Source: a virus. From it: DNA of 64,000 bases. This document shows, piece after piece, positions 22,756-64,000 of this stretch. The position numbers and the translations under genes are program-made. Under the pieces are notes generated by a model. It did no database searches. It saw nothing but the letters and a program-made list of their open reading frames with translations, and had not been told where the DNA came from. The stretch covers positions 1 through 64,000 of the IMG/VR virus record IMGVR_UViG_3300037484_000731, one strand, 5' to 3'. The first letter of the stretch is position 1; each line of letters begins with the position of its first letter.

Positions 22756-24155
22756 TATTTTACTCCCATTACTTGTGATTTGAATTGAGGTCTATTATGC
22801 TTGCTCGTATCCGGAGCTGGAGCATATAAATCCTGTCCCGTTAAAAAATTGATACCATGTACCAAAGCATCAAGTCTATTTGGCGATTTTTGACCTTGCT
22901 GCCATTCACAGAGTTCATCCTCAAGTAATCCAAATGTCCCCACATGATGTACTCTTCCCTGCTCATATAATCCCGACACCGGCTCTGCTCTAAGAGTTTT
23001 ACCTCTACTGGCCGTGATTACATGTACTGTATTATTCCTATCAACATTGCGGATAGTGGACTTGACCATCGCTCCGCCGAAGTTTTTCTCTGCAACGTAT
23101 GCATCACATTTAAACTTATTATATCCTGCCTGTGCCTCTCTTGCCCATCCATCGGGTGAAGCTTGCAACGAAAGGTCTTCAAATACGTAATAATGAGTCA
23201 TATCTCTATTTCTCATACCCTCAAGTGCGCGACCCTCTCCCACAACAATTATTCCATTTTCAGTGGCTTCCTTTCCTTCCTCAGGTTCTGTACCTGCAGG
23301 GTCTATTGAAACAACTATTCTATGACACGGAGCTGCAAGTGATATCCTGTAATCATCAAGCCATTTTCTTTTCCAAAGGGCATTGGGATTATCATCCAGT
23401 AGTTTCGCATAAAGTTCCTGCTTGCCAATCCTTGTACCCTCATATTTTCTGATGACTGTATGAATAAACGGAGCAGCGAGATTATCCATGTTTTCGTATG
23501 TATTCCCTGCCGTGACTACTGTTGCGGGATCATTAATTACTGACTTAAGAAATTTGGTTGGTTTTGGAGTAGTAGATACCATGCAGAGTGGATTCTCACC
23601 AAGACGGAGTCCAAGCATGATATTATCATATGTATCCTGAGGATATTTCCACTTAGCTAACTCATCCATCCATACAAGGTCTGACTGTGCACCACGTGAA
23701 GAATCAGGTTCTGTCCCATAATAGATATTGGCTACTGCTCCATTCGGCCAATAAAGAATCATTTTTGAAGGTTCATATGTCGGCATAAACCAAGGCGGGG
23801 AATGTTGAAGTATTCCGCTTTCTCCTTCAATCATTATCTTTCTTACATCAGTTGCATTCGCTCCAACAAGGGTAACATATCTATACCCATGATTCCTTAC
23901 TTTTTCGATGACCCATTCTGCACCTGTTCTTGTCTTACCAAAACCACGACCGGCCAGTACCAGCCAGATAAACTTATCTATCTGCTGCAATTCTACCGGT
24001 TCTAATTGATTTTTCCTCGCCCAGAAAGACCAATCATAATATAGCCCCATGAAATCCTCATCCGTAAGTTTCCGCAGCATCTTCATTCTCTCCACATATG
24101 GAAGAGCTATAAGAACCTGCGCCAGAGAAGCTGTATTTAGATTGAGCTTAGACAT
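22755..24155 (-). CDS. terL: terminase large subunit
   Basis: Walker A VLAGRGFGKTRTG; 466 aa; followed by a nuclease-like C-terminal half; upstream TerS. Confidence 0.85.
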   Translation of the reverse strand: MSKLNLNTASLAQVLIALPYVERMKMLRKLTDEDFMGLYYDWSFWARKNQLEPVELQQIDKFIWLVLAGRGFGKTRTGAEWVIEKVRNHGYRYVTLVGANATDVRKIMIEGESGILQHSPPWFMPTYEPSKMILYWPNGAVANIYYGTEPDSSRGAQSDLVWMDELAKWKYPQDTYDNIMLGLRLGENPLCMVSTTPKPTKFLKSVINDPATVVTAGNTYENMDNLAAPFIHTVIRKYEGTRIGKQELYAKLLDDNPNALWKRKWLDDYRISLAAPCHRIVVSIDPAGTEPEEGKEATENGIIVVGEGRALEGMRNRDMTHYYVFEDLSLQASPDGWAREAQAGYNKFKCDAYVAEKNFGGAMVKSTIRNVDRNNTVHVITASRGKTLRAEPVSGLYEQGRVHHVGTFGLLEDELCEWQQGQKSPNRLDALVHGINFLTGQDLYAPAPDTSKHNRPQFKSQVMGVK

Positions 24156-35260: not shown

Positions 35261-35629
35261 CTAATTCTGTCCTTTATCACCTCTAAGCATTTTAAGCATC
35301 TTGTCTTTGGACATTTTTTCATCATCAATACGTCTCCTTTTGTCAAAGTACAAAAGAAATAGAGCATTTGCTGCCACATGAGCCATGTGATTAAGACGTG
35401 AATCCAAATCTTCAAGAGCGAACTGATTACCTACCGCAATATTCCACGCAGTAATATGTCGCATTATCGCAGCAAAAAACTCAAACGGATCTTGTGATTG
35501 CTTCCATCCGTCCGGTTGATAGGTGTCTGCACCAAATTGGATGGCCTTCATAACCTCTTCCAATTCTTCAAAGGGCATGAGATTCCAGTTGAGTTTGCCC
35601 GTGGTCTTTTTATGTAGATCACCCATCAA
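35261..35629 (-). CDS. hypothetical protein (weak MazG-like all-alpha NTP-pyrophosphatase resemblance)
   Basis: FEELEEVMKA and ALEDLD acidic motifs in a predicted helical, 122-aa protein; not conclusive. Confidence 0.35.
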   Translation of the reverse strand: MMGDLHKKTTGKLNWNLMPFEELEEVMKAIQFGADTYQPDGWKQSQDPFEFFAAIMRHITAWNIAVGNQFALEDLDSRLNHMAHVAANALFLLYFDKRRRIDDEKMSKDKMLKMLRGDKGQN

Positions 35630-35795: not shown

Positions 35796-36407
35796 TCATT
35801 TCGACCTCGGTATTGGCATCTTGACGAATTTTTTAGTCTTGGGGCTGATAAGTCCTCCTTCGGCAAATATCTTATCCAGCAGCATTGTTTCCAGCTTCAC
35901 ATCGTGGATACAGTAGTCGATAACTTCCTTATGCTTGCCATCCTGCCACATGAACGGGGCATCCTTGCCCTCCATAGATTTCCCCTCATCCGGAAAATTG
36001 ACAGACAATACCTTGCTAAGACTAAACCCACTATGTGTCGTCTTGTCAAAATTCTTGGTCAGTCCACTCGCAAACCATAGTTGTTCCAATATATCATAAC
36101 TGGACTCGTCACCAATCGGAATCCCATGCGCCCTGAGCATGTTGTTATCATATTTCTTTATATTAAACCCCGCAATCAAGTCTGCTGTAGTAAATAGTGT
36201 AATCAAATATTCCATATGGATCGAACTCTGAAAGTCCAACTCAGTAAACATCAAGACTTTATTCTTCTTATCTGACATATAATCATATATTGCCAGTACT
36301 GCAATTCCCATACCTTTATAGTCTTCCCATCCTGATGCATATTCATATTTAGGTTTTTTAACTTTTGCTACTGGAGGACGTACACATTCTATGTCGTACA
36401 CTAACAT
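35796..36407 (-). CDS. DnaQ-like (DEDD) 3'-5' exonuclease
   Basis: Exo I-like VYDIEC and Exo III-like YCIHDVKLE motifs; 203 aa. Confidence 0.5.
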   Translation of the reverse strand: MLVYDIECVRPPVAKVKKPKYEYASGWEDYKGMGIAVLAIYDYMSDKKNKVLMFTELDFQSSIHMEYLITLFTTADLIAGFNIKKYDNNMLRAHGIPIGDESSYDILEQLWFASGLTKNFDKTTHSGFSLSKVLSVNFPDEGKSMEGKDAPFMWQDGKHKEVIDYCIHDVKLETMLLDKIFAEGGLISPKTKKFVKMPIPRSK

Positions 36408-36408
36408 A

Positions 36409-36852
36409 TTATTTCTCCTTATAACTTTTTAAATATCTTATTGCTCTATCTAATATTGTAATATCATCCTGTAATAACCCTAAACATCTATTACATCGAT
36501 GACATAATAACATCCTAATTTCTCCTGTCACGTGATCATGATCTACACAAGCTTTACTCATTACTGGTATTTCATCCATACATATCGCACAACGCCCATA
36601 CTGTGAATCATACATCTTTCTTTTATCATCTAAAGTAATACCATATATTATTTTTAATTTAGTATTAGCTTGACTTTCCTTTGCCTTTATGGGATTATTT
36701 TTTATCCACTTTAAATGATGTTTTCTACCGGCTTCCTTTCCCTTTTTAGTCTTATTATATCTCTTTCTGGCATCAGAATTTGCACATTTGTCCGAACAAT
36801 ATTTTTCTTGTTTTCCTCTGAGTTTTTTACTACAAGCAATACAATTTTTCAT
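36409..36852 (-). CDS. endonuclease-VII-type HNH nuclease
   Basis: CAICMDEIPVMSKACVDHDHVTGEIRMLLCHRCNRCLG (Endonuclease_7 signature). Confidence 0.7.
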   Translation of the reverse strand: MKNCIACSKKLRGKQEKYCSDKCANSDARKRYNKTKKGKEAGRKHHLKWIKNNPIKAKESQANTKLKIIYGITLDDKRKMYDSQYGRCAICMDEIPVMSKACVDHDHVTGEIRMLLCHRCNRCLGLLQDDITILDRAIRYLKSYKEK

Positions 36853-37256
36853 ATTTTATCTGCTATTCTTCGATATAATTTTTCTAAATCGATGTTCCAA
36901 TTATCTTTTATCACTCCAGTCTTGAGATTATTAAGTATGGTCTCTTTATTGAAATAGAGTCTGATATTGTTCTGCAATGCAGTGGCTATTTCCCTTCTCG
37001 TGCCAATTGATTTTTCCCATTCTGGCATTACAAATACCACGTCACATATCTTAAGTATTCTCAGATTCGCATCCATCACAAATTTATCGTATTTTGGATG
37101 ATTGAGCCAGCCCGAATTAAGATGAGGGCTGTAAACTATAAAGCCAGCTTCCCAGAAGAGCTTAGCATATTGCCTTGCTTTCCTTCTATTTAATATCACT
37201 CTCAGCCAGTTCCCTCTCAGACGACCAGCCAGATATAAGATGTACGCCGTTTCCAT
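36849..37256 (-). CDS. hypothetical protein (nucleoside 2-deoxyribosyltransferase-like / DUF4406-like)
   Basis: YILYLAGRLRGNW resembles the YIAGP motif of that fold. Start trimmed to METAYIL (AAGGAG RBS) to remove a 128-nt overlap with the HNH gene. Confidence 0.35.
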   Translation of the reverse strand: METAYILYLAGRLRGNWLRVILNRRKARQYAKLFWEAGFIVYSPHLNSGWLNHPKYDKFVMDANLRILKICDVVFVMPEWEKSIGTRREIATALQNNIRLYFNKETILNNLKTGVIKDNWNIDLEKLYRRIADKI

Positions 37257-37257
37257 A

Positions 37258-37671
37258 CTATTTTCTCCTTTCATGCGGGCAATACCCATAAGCACCCATC
37301 GAACAATTACAATCCCAACAGAGAATCCTATATCCTTTAGGAAAATTATTTCGCTTAAGCCAACGATAAAAAGCAGTACCAGCATAAACTCCTATATTTT
37401 GCCTATGTTTATTACCCCCACCACCAATATGATCTATAGTAAGAAATTCTATTGCTTTCTTTTTATTACAGCAAGCACAGCGATCCCCATAATGAGAAAA
37501 AATTTCCTTCTTTAACTCCTGTCTATGTCTCTTCATATATTCTTTACGAGTCTTTTTACCCTTAGTAGAACTATTATATTTCTTTACAGATTTCCTTATA
37601 GCTATTTTACCTCTTTCTGTCTTGCGCCATTCTTTTTGATGTTCCTTACAATATTTTCCATTGTCGAACAT
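37258..37671 (-). CDS. HNH homing endonuclease, zinc-finger subfamily (paralog 5)
   Basis: GDRCACCNKKKAIEFLTIDHIGGGGNKHR...GYRILCWDCN...GYCPH. Confidence 0.75.
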   Translation of the reverse strand: MFDNGKYCKEHQKEWRKTERGKIAIRKSVKKYNSSTKGKKTRKEYMKRHRQELKKEIFSHYGDRCACCNKKKAIEFLTIDHIGGGGNKHRQNIGVYAGTAFYRWLKRNNFPKGYRILCWDCNCSMGAYGYCPHERRK

Positions 37672-40541: not shown

Positions 40542-41159
40542 TCAAATTCCATTAGATTCGACAGGTATATTTTCAACCTGATTTTTCTTCTTTCTGCCAC
40601 CTCTCGCCCCGTAATATCTCGCTGAATAACAGGTAAGAATTTTCATAATATCCTCTGCTAATTCTTCTTCGTATTTCTTTTCTTTGGTTTCCATTATCTC
40701 TACTTCGATTTCAAGATTCGTAAAGATTGCATCAAGATATTCATAGCCAAATCGGGCAAGTCTGTCTTTATATTCAATCAGCACCCGTTCAACTTTACCT
40801 TCAAAACACATCTTGATTAACTTATGTATGCCGTTCCGCTTTTCGTTTATTCCACTGGCAATCTCGTCAATCAAAACATACTTGTAGCCTTTGGCTTCTG
40901 CGTGTTTCCGTAACCTGTCTTTCTGCCGTTCAAGATTCTCTTTCTGTTTTGCCGTTGAGCATCTTGCATAAATCACAGTCAACTTTTCTTGCTTCTCTTT
41001 CTCGACTCCCATATAAGCGTCTAAGTCTTCCTGACGAAAACGCCTATGCTCACCAGTAGTCTTGAAAGATTTTATCTTTCCGTTGTTGGCAAGCGTCTTG
41101 AGTGTGTTGATAGACACCCCAAGATAATCGCTTGCTTTTGTGATTTTATAGATTTTCAT
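40542..41159 (-). CDS. small serine recombinase with N-terminal MerR-type HTH (IS607 TnpA-like architecture)
   Basis: HTH YLGVSINTLKTLANNGKI first, then the catalytic TVIYARCSTAKQ (YARVSxxxQ) resolvase motif; 205 aa. Confidence 0.7.
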   Translation of the reverse strand: MKIYKITKASDYLGVSINTLKTLANNGKIKSFKTTGEHRRFRQEDLDAYMGVEKEKQEKLTVIYARCSTAKQKENLERQKDRLRKHAEAKGYKYVLIDEIASGINEKRNGIHKLIKMCFEGKVERVLIEYKDRLARFGYEYLDAIFTNLEIEVEIMETKEKKYEEELAEDIMKILTCYSARYYGARGGRKKKNQVENIPVESNGI

Positions 41160-41698
41160 ACTTCATTGCCCCAAACGTCCCATCCTTCGGTCTTTTGCCG
41201 AGCAAAAAGCTCTATTCTGGGTAAATCACCAACCAACTCAATAATTCTTTTTTTTGCTTCATCCGGTTTTTTACTATGTCCCTCAATTGGTGTGTCTATA
41301 ACGGAATGGACGCCAGCATTAATTCTTTTTGGGTTTCCTTTAGTGGCAAGCAGGCACAGTTCAGCATTCGCTCGTGTCCAGCGACCCATACCCCAAAACC
41401 AGCTCCCGCTTTTTTTGTTTCTTTTCACCCAAGTGAAAGAAACTGTTTTATACGAAAAGCCCCATTTTTCTATAAGATCCCAGCACTCGTTTAGTTTTGG
41501 CATAGTTACCCACAAAAAAAGAACGCAGTCTTTATCTGCTATATCTGAAACAGGCAAGTTATCTATCCAATCTTTTTCTTGCACTTGATACTTGCAACCT
41601 GCTCCTCGATTACCAGCCAACGCTTTATCTTTGTAACTCCACGGTGGGTCAGCGTAAATAATCTGATACTTCTTGTTTGGAAATGGTATTTGTTCCAT
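41156..41698 (-). CDS. MT-A70/Dam-like DNA N6-adenine methyltransferase
   Basis: IIYADPPWSY (DPPW catalytic motif) near the N-terminus; 180 aa. Confidence 0.8.
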   Translation of the reverse strand: MEQIPFPNKKYQIIYADPPWSYKDKALAGNRGAGCKYQVQEKDWIDNLPVSDIADKDCVLFLWVTMPKLNECWDLIEKWGFSYKTVSFTWVKRNKKSGSWFWGMGRWTRANAELCLLATKGNPKRINAGVHSVIDTPIEGHSKKPDEAKKRIIELVGDLPRIELFARQKTEGWDVWGNEV

Positions 41699-44987: not shown

Positions 44988-45434
44988 TTATTCCTCTTCA
45001 TTTATATCGACCCCGTAATAGTCAACAAACAAAATTGTCCGACTGTTTTTCTTCGCCATAATCTTGACATATGTATTCAGCCATTTTGCCAGATACCCCT
45101 TAACGTACGAGGAAAAGGGAGCTACTGGCGGAAACTTGTAATATAAGACTCTCCGGAAAAATTCACCCCTCAACATCTGACTTAATTCTAAATAATCCTC
45201 TTTATATAGCGATCCTCGATACTTATTATATGCTACATTTAGTATCTTATCCAGTAAGAACTTATGCAGAGTAAGTAGTAATTCAAATACATGCTGATTC
45301 CAAGTGATCCGGAAGAGTAAAATTAATGTATCGACCTGCACTGTCGAAGTTTTTTTGTTAGCCTCAAAATATGCCTTCACCAGAGAGACATAAGCCTCAA
45401 CTTGAGATGGCAATATTTCGAATTGAACTTTCAT
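44988..45434 (-). CDS. hypothetical protein
   Basis: 148 aa. Confidence 0.4.
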   Translation of the reverse strand: MKVQFEILPSQVEAYVSLVKAYFEANKKTSTVQVDTLILLFRITWNQHVFELLLTLHKFLLDKILNVAYNKYRGSLYKEDYLELSQMLRGEFFRRVLYYKFPPVAPFSSYVKGYLAKWLNTYVKIMAKKNSRTILFVDYYGVDINEEE

Positions 45435-45937
45435 AGGCCAGATGATCCAAACCCTTGATTATTCCGTACTGTATGATCAAATTTAGAAAATACCTCACAC
45501 TCAAACTCACGTTCATCTTTAGTTTCAAAACTTACACTCGTGTGAGGTAGTACTATGAGTTGAGCAATCCTAATTGATGGTGGAAGATGTATTTGCTCAG
45601 CAGTCGTATTATAGACCTTTATAAATAATTCCCCCGTATAATCGGCATCAATGACAGCACTATCAACTAACAACCCGTGTTTGATCATCGTACTTGACCG
45701 GCCAACCAAGAGCATCCACATTGGACGCTTGCTTTTAAGATATACGTTAGTATGGATGTTCGCTCTGCTGTTCGGTTTAATATTAACTGATTCCGACGTA
45801 TAAAGATCATATCCTGCATCATTGTGGAAGACCTTCATTGGAACTTTACCACCCTTACCAAGTCCAATTACACAATTATATGAAAAAAGCCAACTACTTA
45901 CCCACTTTTTAAGCTTATTGTTGATTTGATTTAACAT
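45431..45937 (-). CDS. dut: dUTP pyrophosphatase
   Basis: AGYDL, GRSS and VIDADYTGEL motifs. The real start may be the internal MKVFHNDAGYDL. Confidence 0.85.
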   Translation of the reverse strand: MLNQINNKLKKWVSSWLFSYNCVIGLGKGGKVPMKVFHNDAGYDLYTSESVNIKPNSRANIHTNVYLKSKRPMWMLLVGRSSTMIKHGLLVDSAVIDADYTGELFIKVYNTTAEQIHLPPSIRIAQLIVLPHTSVSFETKDEREFECEVFSKFDHTVRNNQGFGSSGL

Positions 45938-49061: not shown

Positions 49062-49383
49062 ATTGCATACGGATCGTCTTTAAAAGCTCTTCTAATGCAT
49101 CTCTATATATTCGCATTTTAGTCGCTGCGGTCTTATTTTTAGCATTGACTCTTACCTGTTGACAGAAGTATGAATACGTCCGCACAAGCCGTTGATATAA
49201 GTATGGATAAACCGCCAGCAGTGTATCAACCTCATCATAACTCGAAACCTCAAGATCAACATGTACTGGTATAATACTTTCTATCACGATCGTAAGTTCC
49301 AGTACGTCAAATTTATCGGGCTTCGGGTCTATCTTTTCAAAGAACTTGTTTATATTCTCTGTTATCTTACTTCGATTCAGCAT
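49012..49383 (-). CDS. hypothetical protein
   Basis: 123 aa. Confidence 0.4.
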   Translation of the reverse strand: MLNRSKITENINKFFEKIDPKPDKFDVLELTIVIESIIPVHVDLEVSSYDEVDTLLAVYPYLYQRLVRTYSYFCQQVRVNAKNKTAATKMRIYRDALEELLKTIRMQYESLSRRITVFQDRRG

Positions 49384-50392
49384 TCTCTGCCTCCTTTAAC
49401 GCTTTCATGAAATCCTTTCTTAGGTTGGCATTCTCAAGCAGAGCTTGCCCCGCCTTAGCTTTTCCATTTCCGACACTATGACTGCCAAACTTGACAAATG
49501 AGCCGTTTAACGTTAATACTCCCATCCGCAGCCCATATTCAATCATATCAAGTCCCCTATTAAATCCTTGACCAAGTACAAGCTCCTCATCAACTTTTCG
49601 GTATGGGACACCCCACTGATTTTTTATAACATTGAGCGTCACATTCCTTCTTGTTATATCCACAGCACCGGCAGCAGTCTTAATTTGCTGTGATGAAACT
49701 TTTATCCTCATTCCACACATATGCTTTAATGCATGTCCGCCTGTCGTCGTCTCTGGATCGCCAAAAAAATTACCTATCTTAGTGCGAGCTTGATTAATAT
49801 AAATAATAAGTATTTTATTCTGCGTCACGAGTGGAGTCATAACCCTAACCATCTTAGACATAAGCCGTGGATGTGCACCCATGTTTGCATCTGTAAATTC
49901 TCCGGTTATATCAACTAATGGAACTAACATCGACACCGAATCAACCACAACTACACGAACAAGTCCTGATGTAAGTACATCCTTCATAATATCAAGTGCC
50001 TGTTCGCCCCAATTTGGCTGAGTAATGAAAAGTCTCTTAATATCAACTCCCAACACTTCAGCATATTCAAGATTAAGTTTGTGTTCAGCATCAACAATAT
50101 ATCCCATCATACCCAGAGACTGACACTGTGCGAGAATTGATAAGGCAAGAGTAGTCTTCCCGTGACCTTCTGCCCCAGATATTTCAATTTGCGATCCTTC
50201 AACCAATCCCCCGCCCAATGCCCAGTCGAGATTAAAAAGTCCAGTAGTAAAGCGGTTCTTACTACATTTTCGAACTCTACTGGGGCTATTTAATAGATCG
50301 ATACTACCTTCACCATACGACTTAGTTATGTTATCAATAAGGTCTTGAAGATCATTCTTGACCTCTTTTTTTTCTTCTTTTTGTGTTGCCAT
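49367..50392 (-). CDS. recA: RecA-family recombinase
   Basis: Walker A GAEGHGKTTLAL and ILIYINQARTKIG (RecA VIFINQIRMKIG region); 341 aa. Confidence 0.85.
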   Translation of the reverse strand: MATQKEEKKEVKNDLQDLIDNITKSYGEGSIDLLNSPSRVRKCSKNRFTTGLFNLDWALGGGLVEGSQIEISGAEGHGKTTLALSILAQCQSLGMMGYIVDAEHKLNLEYAEVLGVDIKRLFITQPNWGEQALDIMKDVLTSGLVRVVVVDSVSMLVPLVDITGEFTDANMGAHPRLMSKMVRVMTPLVTQNKILIIYINQARTKIGNFFGDPETTTGGHALKHMCGMRIKVSSQQIKTAAGAVDITRRNVTLNVIKNQWGVPYRKVDEELVLGQGFNRGLDMIEYGLRMGVLTLNGSFVKFGSHSVGNGKAKAGQALLENANLRKDFMKALKEAENAESK

Positions 50393-51627: not shown

Positions 51628-52668
51628 CTAATCGAGACCTAAATCAATTAACGTACCTTCACGATCTGTTGAAATACCATACCAACCACCAACATGAGTG
51701 GCCGTATTATTAACAAAATCTTTAGTCTTCTGAGATAATTTATCCCAATCATCACAACTCTCATCCTGACGATTGATGTAGTTGGCGAATGTAAGTATTG
51801 CCCTATCTACTCCATTAATGGCAGTAGCTGCTTTTGCAAGTCTGGCATCCCATATACCAACTCTCCGGACTCTCTTAGTTACTGTTGTGATTTCTGAAAG
51901 TTGAGGATAACCTGACTGCTGAGCTACTATCTCCCAGTTAACCTCTTTATACATTTGTCCACTATTACCCCCAACTCTAATTGGATAGGAACGATAAACT
52001 CCATATACGTGTCTGAGAAATCTTGGATTTATTCTTGCATATGAAAGGAAAGCAGCAGTTGTTGTATCTCTTGATGTACAGAACGGATAGAATTTTGAAA
52101 AATTGGAAAGTCCGAAGCCCTGACTCCCTTCTAAAAGGATATTACCTTGAATTTCATCAATAACAAAATGATCACTAACTCTACTGCGTAATATCCGAGG
52201 ATTGAAACTGTAATCTTCAAATACTTTAGCCGACCTAAGTACTCGTCGGCTTAGAGCCATACCAACACCCTCACACGTACTGCCGATTTTTTCCTTAAGT
52301 TCAAGTTCTCCACGCTCGGCCTGAATATCTTCTTCGCTGATGAGTAATGCTTTTTGATGAATATTAAGTCTATCCACGATAGGAATCCGTTTTGATTCTA
52401 AAAGATCAATTTCTGCAAGAAGAACATCTATATTGATAATAGCTCCTGCTCCGATATAAATCCCAGCTTTGTGATTGATGACTGCTGCCGATGGGATTTG
52501 CCTTGTAACAATAGGCTCTCCTTTATAGATGACAGTATGACCTGCCTGAGCAGAATTTACACTAATTAACCAATCGTATGGCTTCCGCTTTGCCAAAATT
52601 CCGGCTACCAATCCCTTACCTTCTGAACCGAATTGACAACCGACCAACACATCTACTTGTTTATTCAT
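51628..52668 (-). CDS. adenylosuccinate-synthetase-family enzyme, short form with altered P-loop (PurZ-like candidate)
   Basis: VLVGCQFGSEGKGLV (PurA: GTQWGDEGKGK), AGHTV, IGSTCEGVGMA (PurA IGTTGRGIGPA), LEGSQGFGLSNFSKFYPFCTSRDTT (PurA [25 protein letters not shown]); 346 aa. Confidence 0.75.
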   Translation of the reverse strand: MNKQVDVLVGCQFGSEGKGLVAGILAKRKPYDWLISVNSAQAGHTVIYKGEPIVTRQIPSAAVINHKAGIYIGAGAIINIDVLLAEIDLLESKRIPIVDRLNIHQKALLISEEDIQAERGELELKEKIGSTCEGVGMALSRRVLRSAKVFEDYSFNPRILRSRVSDHFVIDEIQGNILLEGSQGFGLSNFSKFYPFCTSRDTTTAAFLSYARINPRFLRHVYGVYRSYPIRVGGNSGQMYKEVNWEIVAQQSGYPQLSEITTVTKRVRRVGIWDARLAKAATAINGVDRAILTFANYINRQDESCDDWDKLSQKTKDFVNNTATHVGGWYGISTDREGTLIDLGLD

Positions 52669-53218: not shown

Positions 53219-53875
53219 TTATTCCTCTATCATATACCGTAAAGTAACCAGCCCCCTATTTATTTTCTCCTGTAGTTTTTTGCTAAATTTATGACTCTTG
53301 CCTTTCTCCTTCCGGAGAAATGAATAAATATTTTCTCTCTTATTAATTGCCTCGATGACCAGCTTCTTCTCAAAGGAAGACAGGCTTTCAAGTGCTATAA
53401 CAAAATTAATTATCCGAGTAAAATTATCACTCATAATGATCGCATCGGTAAAGTCCACACCCGAAGCCATGAGATTATCGACCATGGTCTCCTCACGTTC
53501 ATATGAGATGAGTTCTCCCCCACACTTCTTACATATCACATTTCTGCGATCATAGGCAACAGCCGTGTTGCAATCTTCACAGACATAAATTAGTCGTTCG
53601 CTGCTTACTCGCCGGTAGTAATCTATCGTGGCCTTATATCCACGATTGCAAGCAAAAGCAATCGGATCACCGATTGTCAGTTTTGCTCTGTAAAGAGTAT
53701 TCCAACTTGCGATCAGGAACTCCTCTTTAATTTCGTCCTCACTATAAAGATAATTCGTATGTAAGTGAGGTCTATAACGTCTTAAAATCTCGGCCACAAG
53801 TGTACCTTCTTCTAATCGGGTGATTTTACCCCTCTGTAATTTGGCTACTAATTGGCGACATTCTGCCAAATTCAT
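53219..53875 (-). CDS. putative transcription regulator with internal zinc ribbon (sigma-like?)
   Basis: CEDCNTAVAYDRRNVICKKCGG CxxC...CxxC; N-terminal helical region; 218 aa. Confidence 0.4.
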   Translation of the reverse strand: MNLAECRQLVAKLQRGKITRLEEGTLVAEILRRYRPHLHTNYLYSEDEIKEEFLIASWNTLYRAKLTIGDPIAFACNRGYKATIDYYRRVSSERLIYVCEDCNTAVAYDRRNVICKKCGGELISYEREETMVDNLMASGVDFTDAIIMSDNFTRIINFVIALESLSSFEKKLVIEAINKRENIYSFLRKEKGKSHKFSKKLQEKINRGLVTLRYMIEE

Positions 53876-58208: not shown

Positions 58209-61200
58209 TTAAGGTGTGAAGCCCTTAGCCAGAGCTTTTTGTAGTGTTTTGTCGCTCGTTCTCAAAGTACCAAACTTAAAGTGACCGGCGACAGCATTCT
58301 CAACATCCTCAGAATCGACTTTGACCATATCATTCCAAGAGTTATAGTAAAGGTAGATAGTATCATACTGCTTTACCACGAGATCACTGTACACAATTTT
58401 AATACCAATCATCTTGGCAATAAGTTCACATACGTCCTCTTCGGAAATTCCTGGCCATATCAATACTGGAGGTCTTGTCACACCCCCATGAGCATAGAAA
58501 GCCTGACAAGTGATGAGACCAGTATTCTTTTCATATCCGAACTCTTCAAGTAGACCTATGCTACCATATGCCCACTCATAATGTTGCAATGATGAAGGCT
58601 TATTCACAAGCCCAGTATCATTAAGAGTTCCATTTGTTATGGCTTCCAAATAACTCATTGGTTTATTATAATCTACAGCTCCCTCTGCAAGGAAGGTACT
58701 GCCTATATCTGCACCTATTATATCCTCAACTCCGGCAATTCTACCACCTAAAATTTCTCTATTACTAATATTAGTTTTAGTCGATCCGTCTGATTGTTGA
58801 GTTTCCTGATCTTCTACAGCAGAATATACAATTATTCCTCCACCCGCACCAGATTGGTTTATTCCTCTCGGTAAATTAACTTTTAATGTTCGAAGTGTGT
58901 TGTCTTTAGAAATAATTCGGCCATTAAATATTACATTTCTATCATCGTCCGTCTTAATTGTTATAAGTTTGTATGTGTTTGGCTGTTCATGAATTTCAAT
59001 ATCACTTCCAACTAAATAACCAAGATTAACATTCTTTTCTGTGATACGAAATGCTCCAGCTCCGTACTGAGAACATGTTAATATCTGTTTGATTATAATT
59101 GTATTATTATAGCTAAAATAAATATAATATCCATTATATGGAGTCATGTCGATATTAGCTACAAGCACATAATAGAATGTAAATATGCTACCACCGAAAA
59201 ATTTAAATCCAATAGCCCCAGTAATTGTACCGGCAGCAAGTGGAACACCTACTGAAATACTGGTTATATCAAAATTAACTGCTATGTCCACTGTATTATC
59301 AATATTCTTAGTAATACCGAGTATTTGACCTTCGAGAGGAGCTGGAGCAAGTCTCACATAGGGGACTGCACCACCCTCAGGATTAAAAGTCTTGGATAAT
59401 GGCATTACTTTTTGAAGTTGTTCATTCCACGTATCAAATACTATAAATTTACCCCAGTCTACCGTACCGCTTCCAAACTCCGGATGTTCTGAGAAGAAAT
59501 ACGTTCCATATGCACCGCCAAGAGCATCAGCAATCCATCCAGCATCAGTAATATAAAGGTCTGTTCTCCATTCAACTAAACAGAGATCGACTGCTGATAT
59601 ATAATTACCCGAATATCCTTTAAATTGTGGATCAGTTGAATTAAACGACGATTTATAATCATCTACCTGACTCTCTAATAGAAAGAGCTGCTTACTTAAA
59701 ATATATGCTTCTGCAGCGACAGTCGACTTAAGCAATAATCCCGCCCTATATTTACCAACATCTGAAAGGAGAGTTGGCGCATCAAGGAAAGAACACTGCA
59801 CATAAGAACCATTCCGACCATAATAGGCAAAATATGCTGGAGTAGGCCATGGAGTCTCAGGATGCGGAGTTGCATTGAAATAATCATAACTATGGAAAAT
59901 GCAAATCGGCTCTCTTCTAAAAGGTATCCGATAGAGTGGTAACTCATCATATTTATAAAATTCATCTTCAGTTAAGTAGAGCAAATTCATCCATCTAAGA
60001 TAGAGAGCAGACATCTCACTAATAATCTTAGTACCAAAAAATGTTCTTCCTTTTTGTGTCTTTGGTATGTAACTGATCCATGATCCACCGTTTTCCCAGA
60101 TATTATATCGTGGATGAGTAAGCGGATCGGACTCCGTAAATTCATAATGCTGAGTAGCTGCAATCTTGCGCCCTACCCTGAAATCAGTCAGCATCGTACT
60201 ATTATACTTTGAATATATGTCGTTTTCAGATTTGGTATAGATACTACAATTAGCATCGTACAGGTCTTCAACTGAAATACCACCATAAGTGAAACACCCC
60301 GCAACATCCGTAAGGTCAGTGTAATAGAGAGTACTACCGCCTAATAGAGCACTTCCTTTATTAAGTAATTCATTTTGTATAGGCTCAACTCCCCCAAACC
60401 AAACAAATGCCGGTAATCCAGCCCTTCTATCGATGAGCATCGTATCTCTGTTATATGTAATACCCCTCTTTTTGAAATTTTTGATCAGGAGATAATCGTT
60501 ACCTTTCATCCAACTTGACCATTGAGTACAACCCGAAGGAGACCCCGCACCATATTCAATGAATGTATCATTTATTATAATGACATCAAAATAATCTGCT
60601 ATATCCTGCCATGTTGCAAGACCAGTAATACCATCACCCAAGATACCTTCAATCGAACCATACGCCCCAAGATTAGAACCAATTTCAACCACGCCATCCC
60701 AGTCACCGGTAACCCAGACCTCATCATAATAAATCCCTTCCATCTTTTTGATCTGATTTTCGAATAACCACTGGTCATATTCTCTGCTTGCCGGAGGAAT
60801 AACATTAAGACTGCCGTCCCTGATCGTACGAGTAAAGCCATATATAAGGACTTTTGGTTTGGTTACTAATTTACTTGTATATGTCGCTTTTTTACCATTT
60901 ACTCCGTAATCGGAATCACCCTGCGATGCATTAATGAGTATGGCATTTTCAGGATCAACACTTCCCCAATGAATAGCTTTAATTTCTCTATCACCGCCGA
61001 TCGCATACAAAGAGTTTAGTGAAATTGTAGCTTGTACAATCGTCTGGTCTTCAAGGAAAGTACCAAACGGCTGTACTCTATAATCCCACTTATGTCTTAT
61101 TATTTCGGGCAATATGTAATAATCTACTCCCTCTGTCATCTCGGTAACAGCATCAACCTGATTAATTGCACCAGTCATGAGCTTAAATCCGGAGTTTTTA

Positions 61201-64000
61201 CGATAAAGAACTCCAAACTCAACCTGTTCCCCTGCCACAATCATTCTCGGCCATCCACCGTCTAATCCATACTCAAAATACGAAACAGTAAGAGCAACTG
61301 CAGTCTGATCTGTTAAGAAATGAACGTAAGTTTTCCATTTACCCTTACCACTTGTAGTAATATCCCACTCCTTGTGCTCTATAAGATAGTCTGTACCGGC
61401 TACAAGCACCGTATCTTCTACTATATCAGTATGACCAATCTCATAATTAACATTACCTTCGGGCGCATAAGGAAAATCAAACCAAAGCTGATTAGCATCA
61501 TTATCTATAATTAGAATTGGGTCTCCACCTTCTATTCTGACATATTTTCCCGCCCATTCACTCGGTGTCCATGTTTTCGAGTAGTCTTCTAACCAATCCT
61601 CACCTGCATATCCGTCAACATCTGTTCCACTATCTTCTACGACCCACTCAGTTCCCCCACCACTTTCAAGCTTTACTACACTATGAATAGTGAGACTTGT
61701 TAATAGTACTGCAACATCAACTCCCACGCCGATTATGGCTTCAGTTAAAGCAGTATATCCTATCGCTGCAGTATCAATTCCATTACCGGAATGAAATAAA
61801 TCCCATAAATTCCCAACTGGAATAATTGGATTACCATCCAACGTCAACTTTTTGAGTCCTGTATATCCAGATTGAATCCAAACCGAATTGACTCCAATCT
61901 TAGTAACACCTGTCGGTGTGAATACAATCCAAGACATATTACAATCCACATACGTGAACGGCTTATAGGCATTAAGAAAATTATAGGCATCCTCTCCAAC
62001 ATCACTATTCGCATAAAAGAACAAAGCCGATCTTGGGGCTAATATTAAGGTATAAGAAGTGTTAGCAACAAAACTTTCCCCAGTAAAAAAATTAATTACA
62101 GCCTCATCGAATGTATAACTCAAGCTGCGTACTTGTCGTGATGGGTTGTAAAAAACATAACAACCCTCAAATTTTCTCGACATGATACCATATCTATCAT
62201 ACGTGTCCTGTACATAATAGTCTTCGTATCCGGTTCTCGGAATACCAATAGTTTTTAAATTATCCTTATTTCCAGCCATAATCATATCGTAAAAGAGCTG
62301 ATCAAGTACAATATTACCAACTGCTGTAATATCTTCAATCTTATCACTATATCTCGTCAGCATAAGACTACCTGCAATATGAGATAACATCATTTGCCCG
62401 TGACAAGGATAACCAAGAATAGCAAGTCTTGCATAACCGACTCCAGCACTAATCTTCATTAAATCCCAACGCAACTTAGCTTCATACCAATCAAGGACAA
62501 TATATTGCTTAGTTACTTCATTCGCCATATTCCAAGTTGATTGTAAAGCTTCAAACATTATAAAATGCCTAAATCTCTTATTAATTGCAGCAACATAGTA
62601 CGGGTAAGCATCCCAATTCTCCGGCCATGTATTAATCATACAGAGACCTTTCTCTGCTTTAATCCAATTATCATAAAGTCCAAAAGAATTATTTTCTACA
62701 TGAGCTACTATAGCCTCAAGAAATGCAGCAACTGTCTGCCAGTAATAGATACCATGATCATAGTAATATTGCTCATTTATTATATATGGGAGTCCGCTGC
62801 CGGTCTGAATATTGCCCACAAAATTCAACGTATGAGCATCATTACTGGTAATTTGTACCATTGCCCCGCTATTAACACTAACATAATATCCTGCCCATTC
62901 GTCCACTATCCATGATTTACTATTATCTACAAGTTGAATAGCCGAAGCACTATTGGAAGTCGTATTGCTGTCATGATTCGACATGATCCGTCCTTCCCTG
63001 TAAATGGAAGTCCAGATATCATCCATAAAAAGACCATGAAATCCGATATAGGGTTCGTTATTAATAACATACTTCTGATAATCAACAGCATCATCGCCAT
63101 AATTAAAAGTCAAAGCAGTAACTGTATTTGCAGTAATTTTATACCAATCAATATCAAGAGTAGCTGCCTCTTTAACTATTCCTATGTAGTAATCCACCCA
63201 CTGGCCAGCAACAAAACTCTTGGTACTATCAATAAGAGTGGCAACTTTTGTATCATCATTTACAGTTAATGCACCTGCACCATAAGCAAAAAGTCCCATG
63301 GCCTGATTAACTTTAAATACTTTATACCATTCAAGACAATCGGGATTACCAAGATCAAGCATATATCCAGTCTGAAACCAATAAGTACAATATTCATCAA
63401 GTAGCGAATCTTTAATAAACCAATCAGCAGAGTTTGGAATATCTGCACCGGCTTCTACCACCGTCACACCAAGAGATGGAAAATTAAAAGTCACTTTTTT
63501 TGATAAAGGATTCTTGAGTTTCATTCCATCAATGGTATCTGATACAAACTCCGGCAAATAATCTGATGTACCAGCACCATCAATATAGCCAAGTCTTCTA
63601 AAAGTCTCGCCCCACTTCTGAATAGCTGCACTGTCGGAAAAAATCTGAGTAATTTCTTGTACTGATGTCCTCTGTGATTTATCTAAGATGACCAAGCTAC
63701 CCTTTAATAAGTAGCCTATATCAGCATTTGCGATGTTTTTATATGTCAATGCATAATAATACTCTTCCAGACGCCCCCAATCCTTATATTTTTCTACAAG
63801 ATAGCCACTTGTACCATCAATATATCCACTTTGCTGTAATAGCTTATCAAGAAAGAGCGGTTCGGATCGCTCTCCTTCCACCCCGTAAAAATTAACTGCA
63901 GCAACCCAAAAGTTATAGCCGAGCCATCTCTCAAGATGAGCTGATATTAAAACACCGGCATAATTGGGACTTGCTGATGCATAAGACGGAGCATCAATTC
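58209..64000 (-). CDS. giant virion-type protein (tail fibre/receptor-binding or depolymerase-like), more than 1,930 aa, N-terminus outside window
   Basis: The track starts it at a GTG (63881), but the frame is still open at the window edge. W/Y/G/N/T/D-rich composition typical of beta-structured fibre or carbohydrate-binding proteins. Confidence 0.55.
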   Translation of the reverse strand, partial: IDAPSYASASPNYAGVLISAHLERWLGYNFWVAAVNFYGVEGERSEPLFLDKLLQQSGYIDGTSGYLVEKYKDWGRLEEYYYALTYKNIANADIGYLLKGSLVILDKSQRTSVQEITQIFSDSAAIQKWGETFRRLGYIDGAGTSDYLPEFVSDTIDGMKLKNPLSKKVTFNFPSLGVTVVEAGADIPNSADWFIKDSLLDEYCTYWFQTGYMLDLGNPDCLEWYKVFKVNQAMGLFAYGAGALTVNDDTKVATLIDSTKSFVAGQWVDYYIGIVKEAATLDIDWYKITANTVTALTFNYGDDAVDYQKYVINNEPYIGFHGLFMDDIWTSIYREGRIMSNHDSNTTSNSASAIQLVDNSKSWIVDEWAGYYVSVNSGAMVQITSNDAHTLNFVGNIQTGSGLPYIINEQYYYDHGIYYWQTVAAFLEAIVAHVENNSFGLYDNWIKAEKGLCMINTWPENWDAYPYYVAAINKRFRHFIMFEALQSTWNMANEVTKQYIVLDWYEAKLRWDLMKISAGVGYARLAILGYPCHGQMMLSHIAGSLMLTRYSDKIEDITAVGNIVLDQLFYDMIMAGNKDNLKTIGIPRTGYEDYYVQDTYDRYGIMSRKFEGCYVFYNPSRQVRSLSYTFDEAVINFFTGESFVANTSYTLILAPRSALFFYANSDVGEDAYNFLNAYKPFTYVDCNMSWIVFTPTGVTKIGVNSVWIQSGYTGLKKLTLDGNPIIPVGNLWDLFHSGNGIDTAAIGYTALTEAIIGVGVDVAVLLTSLTIHSVVKLESGGGTEWVVEDSGTDVDGYAGEDWLEDYSKTWTPSEWAGKYVRIEGGDPILIIDNDANQLWFDFPYAPEGNVNYEIGHTDIVEDTVLVAGTDYLIEHKEWDITTSGKGKWKTYVHFLTDQTAVALTVSYFEYGLDGGWPRMIVAGEQVEFGVLYRKNSGFKLMTGAINQVDAVTEMTEGVDYYILPEIIRHKWDYRVQPFGTFLEDQTIVQATISLNSLYAIGGDREIKAIHWGSVDPENAILINASQGDSDYGVNGKKATYTSKLVTKPKVLIYGFTRTIRDGSLNVIPPASREYDQWLFENQIKKMEGIYYDEVWVTGDWDGVVEIGSNLGAYGSIEGILGDGITGLATWQDIADYFDVIIINDTFIEYGAGSPSGCTQWSSWMKGNDYLLIKNFKKRGITYNRDTMLIDRRAGLPAFVWFGGVEPIQNELLNKGSALLGGSTLYYTDLTDVAGCFTYGGISVEDLYDANCSIYTKSENDIYSKYNSTMLTDFRVGRKIAATQHYEFTESDPLTHPRYNIWENGGSWISYIPKTQKGRTFFGTKIISEMSALYLRWMNLLYLTEDEFYKYDELPLYRIPFRREPICIFHSYDYFNATPHPETPWPTPAYFAYYGRNGSYVQCSFLDAPTLLSDVGKYRAGLLLKSTVAAEAYILSKQLFLLESQVDDYKSSFNSTDPQFKGYSGNYISAVDLCLVEWRTDLYITDAGWIADALGGAYGTYFFSEHPEFGSGTVDWGKFIVFDTWNEQLQKVMPLSKTFNPEGGAVPYVRLAPAPLEGQILGITKNIDNTVDIAVNFDITSISVGVPLAAGTITGAIGFKFFGGSIFTFYYVLVANIDMTPYNGYYIYFSYNNTIIIKQILTCSQYGAGAFRITEKNVNLGYLVGSDIEIHEQPNTYKLITIKTDDDRNVIFNGRIISKDNTLRTLKVNLPRGINQSGAGGGIIVYSAVEDQETQQSDGSTKTNISNREILGGRIAGVEDIIGADIGSTFLAEGAVDYNKPMSYLEAITNGTLNDTGLVNKPSSLQHYEWAYGSIGLLEEFGYEKNTGLITCQAFYAHGGVTRPPVLIWPGISEEDVCELIAKMIGIKIVYSDLVVKQYDTIYLYYNSWNDMVKVDSEDVENAVAGHFKFGTLRTSDKTLQKALAKGFTP

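Follow-up and report, generated by a model that had tools for sequence, protein, structure and literature searches.

The window analyzed here, a 64-kb stretch of a 69.8-kb source contig, contains a PurA-like gene that is part of the replication module of a genuine, uncultured tailed phage (Table 1). A sequence-only reading of this DNA had marked the gene as a candidate PurZ, and its open reading frame is recovered with exactly the span and length given there, on the minus strand. The frame has an ATG start, a TAG stop, and an AAGGAG Shine-Dalgarno sequence 7 nt upstream of the start. The N terminus of the protein is MNKQVDVLVGCQFGSEGKG, from which the P-loop GCQFGSEGKG is read as previously reported. 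The order of the PurZ-like gene, the gene for a 377-residue protein with no family or PDB match, and recA is kept in all clade relatives.

Table 1. Positions in the window of the PurZ-type gene and of other genes discussed in the text
Feature	Coordinates	Strand	Evidence or context
PurZ-type N6-succino-2-amino-2'-deoxyadenylate synthase candidate, 346 aa	51628..52668	-	ORF and ribosome-binding site, Pfam, PHROG, residues, trees, AlphaFold2 model
Key residues of the PurZ-type protein			F13, S15, H44, W245, T261, F294, N296, Y297
Conserved protein without assigned function, 377 aa	50441..51574	-	Directly downstream of PurZ-type gene
RecA/UvsX-like recombinase	49367-50392		After gene for 377-aa protein
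DutZ-like trimeric dUTPase-fold diphosphatase, 168 aa	45431..45937	-	Pfam, phage matches, tree
Conserved protein without assigned function, 148 aa	44988..45434	-	Always between Dut-like gene and polymerase
DnaE-type DNA polymerase III alpha, 986 aa	42024..44984	-	PHP, pol3 alpha, finger, HhH, OB domains
MT-A70 (N6-adenine methyltransferase)	41156-41698		
NDT-superfamily (DUF4406) protein, 141 aa	36849..37274	-	Pfam DUF4406 3e-9; PHROG 355
Putative exonuclease	35796-36407		
DUF5664 (PF18909) stand-alone dATP/dGTP diphosphohydrolase-like protein, ~121 aa	35261..35626	-	Pfam PF18909 8.1e-22

Homology and fold of the PurZ-type protein

The proposed homology to adenylosuccinate synthetase lies far above chance. 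The protein matches Pfam PF00709 with an E value of 4e-44 and PHROG 1211 with 2.6e-68, and a comparison with PDB chains of PurA and PurZ gives about 1e-41, the PurZ, PurZ0, and PurA chains spanning 1e-28 to 1e-41. An AlphaFold2 model (pLDDT 96.2) has TM scores of 0.84 to 0.91 to PurA, PurZ0, and PurZ structures. The best structural match is the archaeal PurA of Pyrococcus horikoshii (PDB 2D7U/5K7X; TM 0.88/0.91, rmsd 2.3 Å), which is of the same length class and has the same indel pattern. The short PurA fold together with this homology is characteristic of the PurZ group, comprising PurZ and PurZ0. Fold comparison was rejected as a discriminator between the groups, as archaeal PurA, PurZ0, and PurZ match equally well.

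The protein scores below the curated cut-offs of three family models: 234.5 bits against the NCBIfam PurZ model (NF038379; cut-off 300), 225.8 bits against the archaeal PurA model (NF003295; cut-off 368), and 154.7 bits against the PurA equivalog TIGR00184 (cut-off 395.55). PADLOC has no model for PurA-like proteins.

Diagnostic residues

S15 of the window protein aligns with Asp13 of Escherichia coli PurA (GTQWGDEGKG), with the equivalent Asp of P. horikoshii PurA (GGQWGDEGKG), and with S14 of PhiVC8 PurZ. Cellular PurA keeps Asp13 in 99% of cases, while Ser is found in 100% of phage PurZ/PurZ0 (PMC12884076); the window protein thus carries the Ser typical of the PurZ group. At this catalytic position, Asp is missing from all 119 of its nearest database homologues. 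An alignment of the residues around the purine 2-position, the check proposed in the sequence-only reading, reveals the PurZ-discriminating set: at PhiVC8 positions 12/14/262 the protein has F/S/T as opposed to W/D/G in PurA, its pocket residues F13 and T261 standing where PurA has W and G, and W is present at position 252.

The donor site reads TFANY, with F294, N296, and Y297 corresponding to the ATP-type F295/N297/Y298 of classical PurZ, which has Asn or Gln at 297 (NFCNY, NFANY, or NFAQY). In PurA and PurZ0, the place of this Asn is taken by an Asp that specifies guanine. Asn is found in 49/49 members of the window clade, whereas Asp is retained in 72 of the 78 other sequences. The marks of canonical PurA (Asp13, the GTP-specifying Asp of TKLD/TMLD, and equivalog-level scores) are absent from the protein, which has Ser and Asn instead, and so is the guanine-type donor motif T-M-x-D-Q/H/Y of PurZ0, seen as TMLDQ in HunterDalle and Cicada.

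PurZ has a loop insertion near the substrate C2' (S-2L A242-W250; the Y244 region of PhiVC8) that is linked to deoxyribose selection. The window protein has a gap here, as do PurZ0 and PurA, and it deviates at 4 of 12 differentially conserved positions (P144A, Y244 gap, G256A, and S273I). With classical PurZ (Vibrio phage PhiVC8, cyanophage S-2L, and Acinetobacter phage SH-Ab 15497; PDB 6FM1/6FKO and 7ODX), it shares the replacement of the catalytic Asp by Ser, F/Y at 12 with T at 262, which serve dGMP's 2-amino group, the ATP-type donor site, a short (~350 aa) PurA fold, and a gene embedded in a replication module. However, it is just 30 to 33% identical to these enzymes, whose P-loop is D-x-Q-F/Y-G-S-T-G-K-G, and besides lacking the loop insertion it retains a PurA-like C-terminal segment and carries a clade-specific SGYP-QLS insertion.

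Phylogeny and a cellular Ser-type family

To place the protein, neighbor-joining trees were generated with only two true-PurA outgroups, those of E. coli and P. horikoshii. In both of two trees, the window protein falls into a Ser-type clade that excludes these outgroups with a bootstrap of 100 and contains PurZ and PurZ0 together with a cellular Ser-type family. As it lies outside bacterial and archaeal PurA with this support, there is no nesting within cellular PurA, the outcome that the sequence-only reading had named as speaking against PurZ. The window clade is a separate deep branch, not nested within the PurZ of PhiVC8, S-2L, and SH-Ab, and its relation to them has bootstraps of only 17 to 38 in the first tree. 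A weak grouping with PurZ0 in that tree (bootstrap 17) was dropped in favor of a balanced, better-sampled tree, in which the window subclade appears as the sister branch of classical PurZ (PhiVC8, S-2L, and SH-Ab) with a bootstrap of 85.

Ser-type PurA-like genes are also found in cellular genomes, where they number at least 568 and encode proteins with 34 to 41% identity, including examples from Lacibacter sp. MH-610, Rhizobium mesoamericanum, and Granulicella. Like the window protein, they have the P-loop Ser, usually F/Y at 12 and T at 262, and F295/Y298, and they belong to the same 100%-bootstrap clade. In contrast, they form basal branches, retain Asp at 297, and are encoded on bacterial chromosomes with no Dut, DatZ, or polymerase neighbors. 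Instead, they adjoin dNK, dCTP-deaminase-like (DCD-like), AAA(-kinase), or DUF7002 genes, and 79 of the best 80 loci have no Z toolkit nearby. The Lacibacter operon, for example, comprises RNase H/AAA, PurZ-like, DCD-like, and dNK genes. Because this large family carries Ser without the toolkit, Ser alone proves nothing, and the signature is insufficient for predicting Z genomes from metagenomes via PurZ. A Solibacter usitatus protein is named as similar in the PhiVC8 PurZ record. The literature yielded nothing relevant on cellular PurZ-like genes, nor on PurZ combined with either DnaE or Pol III alpha.

Companion genes

The sequence-only reading had pointed to a dUTPase, an MT-A70 methylase, and many nucleases as an investment in DNA-level conflict. 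All are present, the nucleases comprising two HNH endonucleases, an endonuclease VII, an exonuclease, and a T5orf172-type nuclease. The dUTPase-like protein, however, belongs to the DutZ clade rather than to generic conflict equipment. It matches Pfam dUTPase at 3e-24 and is under the NCBIfam dut cut-offs, and its best phage-database matches, at 89 to 99 bits, are DutZ proteins of PurZ0 actinophages, including the characterized Wayne enzyme, as opposed to 45 to 69 bits for canonical phage Duts. In a tree that included five canonical phage Duts, it groups with all PurZ-associated Duts, namely the DutZ of Wayne, HunterDalle, Cicada, and Spocter, with a bootstrap of 94. The DutZ clade of Z-phages clears dATP and supplies dGMP, and hydrolysis of dATP and dGTP has been demonstrated in a published study of DutZ from Wayne and Ghobes. 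The window enzyme is predicted to hydrolyze dATP, as well as dGTP and dUTP, to the monophosphates. Its gene adjoins the polymerase region in all clade relatives. Among 90 PurZ-like loci (84 IMG/VR and metagenome contigs, 5 reference phages, and the window), 60 have a Dut-like gene no more than 10 kb from the PurZ-like gene.

The 148-residue protein has no match in Pfam, PHROG, or NCBIfam and has same-position homologues in all clade relatives (1e-32 to 4e-43). The neighboring Pol III alpha (Pfam PF07733 at 2.3e-64, PF17657, PF02811, and PF14579; PHROG 405) is the sole replicase within the window, which has no PolA, and so it is the enzyme that would have to copy a Z-containing genome. Polymerase, PurZ-like, and Dut-like genes are kept together in related contigs L007 to L009, L011 to L013, L092, and L095, and the whole module is kept in at least eight related metagenomic phage contigs.

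The DUF5664 protein matches HunterDalle gp47 (phmmer, 1.5e-9) and the N-terminal domain of the SH-Ab 15497 MazZ (6.5e-5). It is a weaker part of the gene set, being not conserved in relatives L091 and L092 and belonging to a family that is common in non-Z phages. The NDT-like protein, which matches PHROG 355 ("nucleoside 2-deoxyribosyltransferase") at 8e-19, has a syntenic counterpart in L091 and L092 (~1e-26). Its Tyr8, Asp72, and Glu89 are invariant, and this Tyr/Asp/Glu triad is the only feature in common with DmtZ, to which hhalign (probability 0.3%) and phmmer find no significant similarity. DmtZ is adjacent or fused to DutZ, whereas the NDT-like gene lies 8 kb from the Dut gene. A pattern search of IMG/VR found no relatives of this protein, a large protein database returned only the protein itself, and no PDB sequence matched; a single-sequence AlphaFold model (pLDDT 43.8) was unusable. 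We infer a possible deoxynucleotide N-glycosidase role for this protein, which would make it functionally analogous to DmtZ.

Comparison with known Z-phage toolkits

Searches with three reference protein sets by phmmer and with Pfam found no DatZ, MazZ, DpoZ, or PrimPol in the 64-kb window, to which all gene-absence searches apply, the other ~5.8 kb of the source contig lying outside it. Classical PurZ is partnered by the HD dATPase DatZ, MazZ/DUF550, and usually DpoZ/PrimPol, whereas the partners in the window are DutZ-like, NDT-like, and Pol III alpha proteins. The PurZ0 system of Arthrobacter phage Wayne and Gordonia phage Ghobes (PDB 7VF6) has DutZ, DmtZ, and DUF5664-1. The window resembles it in having a DutZ-clade diphosphatase, a DUF5664 protein, and an NDT-superfamily protein without DatZ/MazZ, and in the similar indel architecture of the synthetase. 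It differs in the donor motif, TFANY as opposed to the guanine-type TMLDQ, and in the placement of the synthetase, which groups elsewhere in the better-sampled tree. Further differences are that the NDT-like protein is of the DUF4406 type, with no detectable DmtZ homology and a gene neither adjacent nor fused to Dut, and that a C-family Pol III alpha is the only polymerase found in the window, where PurZ0 phages have the PolA-type DpoZ-1.

No paper and no cultured phage was found that joins an ATP-type PurZ and DutZ with a C-family polymerase. Streptomyces phage Spocter and Burkholderia phage BCSR129 were considered as isolates with PurZ and Pol III alpha and were rejected, as both use PolA. 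No near-identical DNA was found among GenBank phages. Judging from the trees and gene content, the window lineage is a PurZ branch without earlier description that has a Pol III-alpha-type replicase.

A proposed route to 2-aminoadenine DNA

Residues, phylogeny, DutZ-clade context, and module conservation separate the window protein from PurA and support its standing as a candidate PurZ. Given the observed homology, diagnostic residues, phylogenetic position, and conserved gene set, we put at roughly 0.7 the probability that the PurZ-type enzyme and its helper enzymes replace adenine with 2-aminoadenine (Z) in the phage DNA. In the pathway that we infer, for enzymatic activities, host contribution, polymerase behavior, and extent of substitution alike, the PurZ-type enzyme would join aspartate to dGMP, with ATP, and possibly dATP as well, serving as the phosphate donor. 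The product, N6-succino-2-amino-2'-deoxyadenylate, would be converted to dZTP by host PurB and host kinases. The DutZ-like diphosphatase would turn dATP into dAMP and regenerate dGMP from dGTP, probably assisted by the DUF5664 pyrophosphohydrolase, and dAMP may in turn be broken down by the conserved NDT-superfamily protein. Once dATP has been depleted, the DnaE-type Pol III alpha would insert Z opposite T, leaving genomic adenine largely or wholly replaced by 2-aminoadenine.

Alternative explanations

It is unlikely, in our estimate, that the PurZ pathway works and substitution is only partial, a result that would follow from the lack of DatZ and a Z-selective DpoZ and would leave a mixed A/Z genome with MT-A70 methylating the leftover adenines. 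Neither DatZ nor DpoZ is found in the 64-kb window; yet PurZ0 phages, which are treated in the literature as Z-DNA phages, reach Z genomes with DutZ in place of DatZ. In plasmid experiments, dZ is incorporated only in part where polymerase, helicase, and SSB have not been matched. S-2L, however, is fully substituted although its Z-DNA is replicated by a non-selective PrimPol, the phage depending on dATP removal (PMC8065100). The MT-A70 gene, found in this phage and in relative L091 and compatible with residual adenine, is absent from L092 and L007; as it is not conserved across the lineage, it is probably accessory or mobile.

We consider it rather improbable that the gene encodes a Ser-type PurA-like ligase with other nucleotide chemistry in a phage whose DNA keeps ordinary adenine; examples would be a ribonucleotide or other purine monophosphate as substrate, pool manipulation, or counter-defense. 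The many cellular Ser-type homologues, which lack a Z toolkit and share operons with dNK, dCTP-deaminase-like, AAA-kinase, or DUF7002 genes, are what such an enzyme would resemble, but the window clade stands apart from these families and with classical PurZ in the balanced tree (bootstrap 85), and it has an ATP-type Asn and linkage to a DutZ-clade gene that they lack. Other chemistry would also agree with the score under the PurZ NCBIfam cut-off, with the MT-A70 gene, which suggests adenine targets, and with the missing loop insertion, although PurZ0 enzymes lack this insertion as well and their phages are nonetheless regarded as having Z-DNA.

A merely divergent, otherwise ordinary PurA, serving as an auxiliary enzyme to raise the supply of AMP/dATP (IMP + Asp + GTP -> adenylosuccinate), is very improbable, for despite the overall PurA homology, the best fold match to a short archaeal PurA, and an archaeal PurA model score nearly equal to that of the PurZ model, the changes of Asp13 to Ser, W to F, G to T, and the guanine-binding Asp to Asn (F/S/T and TFAN as opposed to W/D/G and the TMLD GTP site of archaeal PurA) all run in the PurZ direction, the split from PurA has a bootstrap of 100, every PurA equivalog cut-off is far above the score obtained, and Asp is found at the catalytic position in 0/119 nearest homologues.

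Implications of a Z genome in this lineage

Should the replacement of adenine by Z hold, this lineage could be the first with a C-family (DnaE/Pol III alpha) replicase on a 2-aminoadenine genome, with an ATP-type PurZ and DutZ-type dATP clearance, a claim that we advance tentatively and at somewhat less than even odds. If true, the published dichotomy between PurZ with DatZ/MazZ and PurZ0 with DutZ/DmtZ would be broken, and the pairing of PurZ with DutZ would suggest that DutZ either dates back to the ancestral Z toolkit or passes freely from lineage to lineage. The DUF4406 NDT-superfamily protein would then be the second enzyme recruited, independently, to destroy dAMP; more polymerases would be known to copy ZTGC-DNA, and the evolutionary series of archaeal PurA, PurZ0, and PurZ would gain an intermediate. 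To our knowledge, no natural systems other than Z-genome phages replace a canonical base completely at the level of the nucleotide pool. Z-phage enzymes are in use for making dZ-DNA in cells, and the polymerase, Dut-like, and DUF4406 proteins would provide new engineering parts.

The blanket resistance to restriction that the sequence-only reading had attributed to Z-DNA is overstated; dZ blocked or partly blocked only 53% of 147 tested enzymes (PMC12944874). Restriction-site avoidance was tried as a sequence-only test for Z-DNA and rejected as nondiscriminating, because A/T-containing sites are avoided in proven Z genomes as well: PhiVC8 has 4 GATC sites where 152 are expected, and S-2L has 14 CTAG sites where 54 are expected.

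An MT-A70 N6-adenine methyltransferase is odd in a phage whose DNA would have no adenine left; the enzyme might act on Z itself. As for the host, no tRNAs were found, and the polymerase is merely 27 to 31% identical to those of isolates. The sole hint is one related contig that was binned into a Fibrobacter MAG.

The window protein is a PurA homologue with PurZ-type residues

A Z (2-aminoadenine) pathway is predicted to operate in the window's phage, with a probability that we put at about 0.7. The candidate PurZ gene carries AAGGAG 7 nt upstream of its ATG, and its product begins with MNKQVDVLVGCQFGSEGKG, exactly as in the sequence-only reading. That reading had also assigned the protein to the PurA (adenylosuccinate synthetase) family, and Pfam, PHROG, phmmer, and AlphaFold2 place this homology beyond doubt. 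The protein is matched by PF00709 (E=4e-44) and by PHROG 1211, "2-aminooxy adenylosuccinate synthetase" (2.6e-68), while phmmer against the PDB returns P. horikoshii PurA and PhiVC8 PurZ, both at ~1e-41, PurZ0 (7VF6) at 1.5e-38, and S-2L PurZ at 4e-28. The AlphaFold2 model (pLDDT 96.2, with 73 homologues as input) superposes equally on short archaeal PurA, PurZ0, and PurZ (TM 0.83 to 0.91), so the fold does not separate these groups. The NCBI curated models do not settle the choice between PurZ and archaeal PurA either, with scores of 234.5 bits (cutoff 300) and 225.8 bits (cutoff 368), respectively.

Diagnostic residues have published criteria. In a set of 767 PurA homologues, 99% of cellular PurA-clade members keep the catalytic Asp13 of E. 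coli PurA, and all 147 phage PurZ/PurZ0 sequences (100%) carry Ser there (PMC12884076). The window protein was aligned with the PhiVC8, S-2L, and SH-Ab 15497 enzymes, two PurZ0 proteins, and E. coli and P. horikoshii PurA. At positions 12, 14, and 262 (PhiVC8 numbering) it has Phe, Ser, and Thr where PurA has Trp, Asp, and Gly, and it has Trp at 252 and Pro at 233. Positions 294 to 298 read TFANY, as opposed to TKLD or TMLD in PurA and TMLDQ in PurZ0; in PurZ, F295 and Y298 stabilize the adenine of ATP (bioRxiv 10.1101/2025.10.22.683976). Family-wide catalytic and phosphate-binding residues are intact (K18, H44, Q183, and others). The protein nevertheless differs from classical PurZ, having Ala in place of P144 and G256 and Ile in place of S273, and it lacks, as does PurZ0, the PurZ-specific loop insertion (Y244 region) that the literature links to deoxyribose selection.

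Phylogenetic placement

The catalytic position is occupied by Ser in 113 of the nearest 119 database homologues, by Gly in 5, by His in 1, and by Asp in none. In a neighbor-joining tree of 127 sequences (100 bootstraps), all Ser-type sequences separate from E. coli and P. horikoshii PurA with a bootstrap of 100, which answers the concern that the protein might nest within cellular PurA, as far as distance trees with few true-PurA outgroups can. The window protein lies in a 49-member clade (bootstrap 98) that has no characterized member; position 297 is Asn in all 49, whereas Asp is kept in 72 of the 78 other sequences.

A second, better balanced tree drew its 69 sequences from viral groups, cellular homologues, and the archaeal/CPR set, and was built on an L-INS-i alignment with 200 bootstraps. 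The window clade is recovered at 100 and joins classical PurZ and two IMG/VR contigs, L014 and L033, at 85. Neither PurZ0 nor a large viral "FxDY" group belongs to this grouping, and cellular Ser-type sequences form basal branches. By these distance trees, with their few true-PurA outgroups, the putative PurZ forms a deep-branching lineage of its own on the side of PurZ, neither cellular PurA nor PurZ0.

A DutZ-like partner in a phage replication module

An identical protein has a single database record, on a 69,811-bp JGI metagenome contig of which the window covers all but ~5.8 kb. The window comes from a true tailed phage, encoding terminase small and large subunits, portal, and major head and tail proteins among ~98 open reading frames, nearly all on the minus strand. 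It has no tRNAs, and no close DNA relative was found among 50,697 GenBank phages. The PurZ-like gene sits inside the replication module, in the order PurZ-like, 377-aa uncharacterized protein, RecA/UvsX-like recombinase, HNH endonuclease, primase-helicase, Dut-like, 148-aa protein, DnaE-type Pol III alpha, MT-A70 with serine recombinase, DUF932, exonuclease, NDT-like, endonuclease VII, exonuclease-like protein, and DUF5664 protein.

Coordinates of features in the window and of cellular Ser-type examples
Feature	Coordinates	Strand	Basis or remark
PurZ-like gene	51628..52668	-	ORF, 346 aa; ATG start, TAG stop
DUF5664 protein	35261-35626		PF18909 8e-22
NDT-like protein	36849-37274		DUF4406: Pfam 3e-9; PHROG 355 8e-19
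Serine recombinase/transposase	40542-41159		adjoins MT-A70 gene
MT-A70 N6-adenine DNA methyltransferase	41156-41698		Pfam 4e-30
148-aa protein	44988-45434		always between Dut and polymerase genes
Dut-like protein	45431-45937		phage Dut matches, tree
218-aa protein	53219-53875		upstream of PurZ; zinc-ribbon hits
1,890-aa ORF	58209-63881
Lacibacter sp. MH-610, Ser-type	L111:5950-10795
Rhizobium mesoamericanum, Ser-type	L144:7434-9741
Granulicella, Ser-type	L099:7968-11583

No HD-domain DatZ, MazG-type MazZ or DUF550, PolA-type DpoZ, or PrimPol was found in the 64-kb window. Its set of accessory genes resembles that of PurZ0 actinophages rather than the classical Z-cluster partners. In those actinophages, DutZ and DUF5664 both convert dATP, dGTP, and dUTP to monophosphates, and DmtZ is an NDT-family dAMP N-hydrolase and deoxyribose-5-phosphate transferase.

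The Dut-like protein is the strongest contextual evidence for the PurZ reading. It scores below the NCBI dUTPase cutoffs, and the top ~140 of its 1,453 matching phage records are PurZ0 actinophages, including the characterized Wayne enzyme, at 89 to 99 bits (E 1e-19 to 1e-22) versus 45 to 69 bits for canonical phage Duts. A tree of 30 sequences sets every one of the 25 PurZ-associated Dut-like proteins, which come from five PurZ subgroups, apart from five canonical phage dUTPases (bootstrap 94). At their N termini, the Dut-like proteins of the window and of relatives L007, L008, and L009 are all extended by ~30 aa that include a conserved "SWLF(S/T)Y" motif, absent in actinophage DutZ and canonical Duts.

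The DUF5664 protein matches HunterDalle gp47 and the N-terminal domain of SH-Ab MazZ; this family is frequent in non-Z phages, and the gene is absent from relatives. The NDT-like protein keeps the invariant Tyr/Asp/Glu set and a conserved syntenic position in relatives, with no detectable homology to DmtZ or any solved structure; dAMP destruction by it would be an analogy. In cultured Vibrio phage 1.094.O (L179, MG592468.1 39150-39844), a DUF4406 gene abuts a canonical-type dUTPase gene with a 4-nt overlap, a pairing that resembles DmtZ-DutZ and may occur outside the known Z-phages.

Conservation across related phages

Homologues with 44 to 67% identity occur on phage-sized contigs (L007 to L009, L011 to L013, L092, and L095) that share the order PurZ-like, 377-aa, RecA, primase-helicase, Dut-like, 148-aa, Pol III alpha. 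We then compared 90 PurZ-like phage or viral-contig loci (84 IMG/VR and metagenome contigs, five reference phages, and the window). The P-loop Ser is present in 89, a Dut-like gene lies within 10 kb in 60, and DatZ occurs in 9. The ATP-type "FxNY" is restricted to classical PurZ, accompanied by DatZ, MazZ/DUF550, and PolA, and to the window's clade, accompanied by Dut and Pol III alpha. Two contigs, L014 and L033 (3300042731_008609 and 3300006467_000028), look like intermediates between this lineage and classical PurZ phages: their PurZ-like proteins join a classical-type P-loop (D-L/M-Q-F/Y-G-S-T-A-K-G) to Asp at 297, and both contigs also encode RecA, Pol III alpha, a Dut-like protein, and an HD protein weakly similar to DatZ.

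Among the cultured phages checked, PurZ is paired with PolA in PhiVC8, SH-Ab, HunterDalle, Cicada, Spocter, and BCSR129, and with PrimPol in S-2L; in the literature searched, no paper connects PurZ to DnaE or Pol III alpha. Two genes are split by inteins that contain LAGLIDADG homing endonucleases: RecA in relative L008 (12150-14189), and the ribonucleotide reductase (L010:6587-9664) of a 140-kb T4-like phage with a PurZ-like gene and a UDG-PolA fusion polymerase.

Cellular Ser-type homologues

At least 568 PurA-like genes with a Ser P-loop, a large uncharacterized cellular family, are present in a species-representative genome collection. Many are carried on megabase-sized chromosomes, in isolates such as those of Lacibacter, Rhizobium, Sinorhizobium, Mesorhizobium, and Microbacterium. 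For 79 of the best 80 of these loci, no Z-toolkit gene lies within 8 kb; the Ser substitution alone is therefore no proof of a Z-genome. The genes (L095 to L174) sit in small operons with nucleotide-related or AAA proteins, such as deoxynucleoside kinase, dCTP-deaminase-like, RNase H/AAA-kinase, DUF7002, and IetA-like AAA ATPase. These operons, which have no PADLOC model, may be defense or nucleotide-modifying systems. The predicted PurZ identity of the window protein rests instead on five features combined: Ser/Phe/Thr, the ATP-type Asn, grouping with classical PurZ, a DutZ-clade partner, and a phage replication context.

Proposed pathway and donor

By homology, the DutZ-like protein, with or without DUF5664, would convert dATP to dAMP and PPi and dGTP to dGMP and PPi. 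The PurZ-like enzyme would then condense dGMP with Asp, using ATP or dATP, to dSMP, which host PurB would convert to dZMP and host kinases to dZTP. The scarcity of dATP would lead Pol III alpha to place Z opposite T, and the DUF4406 protein may hydrolyze dAMP. The window shows no PurB gene; Streptomyces phage Spocter, a PurZ0-type isolate, encodes its own PurB-like adenylosuccinate lyase (L093:16551-17924), so some Z-phages do not depend on host PurB.

As to the donor, PurZ0 reportedly uses GTP. Together with that report, the residues point to a derived state in PurZ in which ATP/dATP is the donor, as does the summary of the preprint (bioRxiv 10.1101/2025.10.22.683976). The statement that PurZ0 and PurZ prefer "ATP and GTP, respectively" (PMC12884076) appears to have the order reversed. 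For Z insertion, S-2L offers a precedent in a nonselective polymerase plus dATP removal (PMC8065100).

PurZ-based prediction of dZ genomes is established, with >2,000 viruses so predicted (PMC13128860), and the gene family and pathway are thus already known. Three things are new: a putative PurZ subclade that stands apart as the sister of classical PurZ and has a distinct indel pattern; its association with pool control of the DutZ type in place of the DatZ/MazZ type, which runs against the published PurZ/PurZ0 toolkit dichotomy; and a C-family polymerase as replicase beside PurZ.

Other features of the genome

The MT-A70 adenine methylase is odd in a putatively adenine-free genome; it also occurs in relative L091, at a different position, and is absent from L092 and L007. 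The adjoining recombinase is unique to the window's contig. The 1,890-aa open reading frame has no match whatever in Pfam or PHROG, and neither the 148-aa nor the 218-aa protein has a significant family match. The latter is also conserved in relatives, and a stretch of the former, FSSYVKGYLAKWLNTYV, resembles sigma-70 region 2 by eye. Plus-strand GC skew is uniformly negative (cumulative -7.17, no turning point), fitting near-exclusive minus-strand coding, and shows no origin or terminus signature in the window.

CTAG is missing from the window (0 observed versus ~75 expected, z -9.8) and CGCG nearly so (1, at 23228, versus ~32, z -6.2), with observed/expected ratios of 0.75 to 1.09 for the remaining 4-mer palindromes; such depletion points to specific host restriction systems. 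CGCG avoidance, often with GCGC or GGCC, is common to related contigs, and the closest relative, L007, alone shares the CTAG loss (3 observed versus 59 expected).
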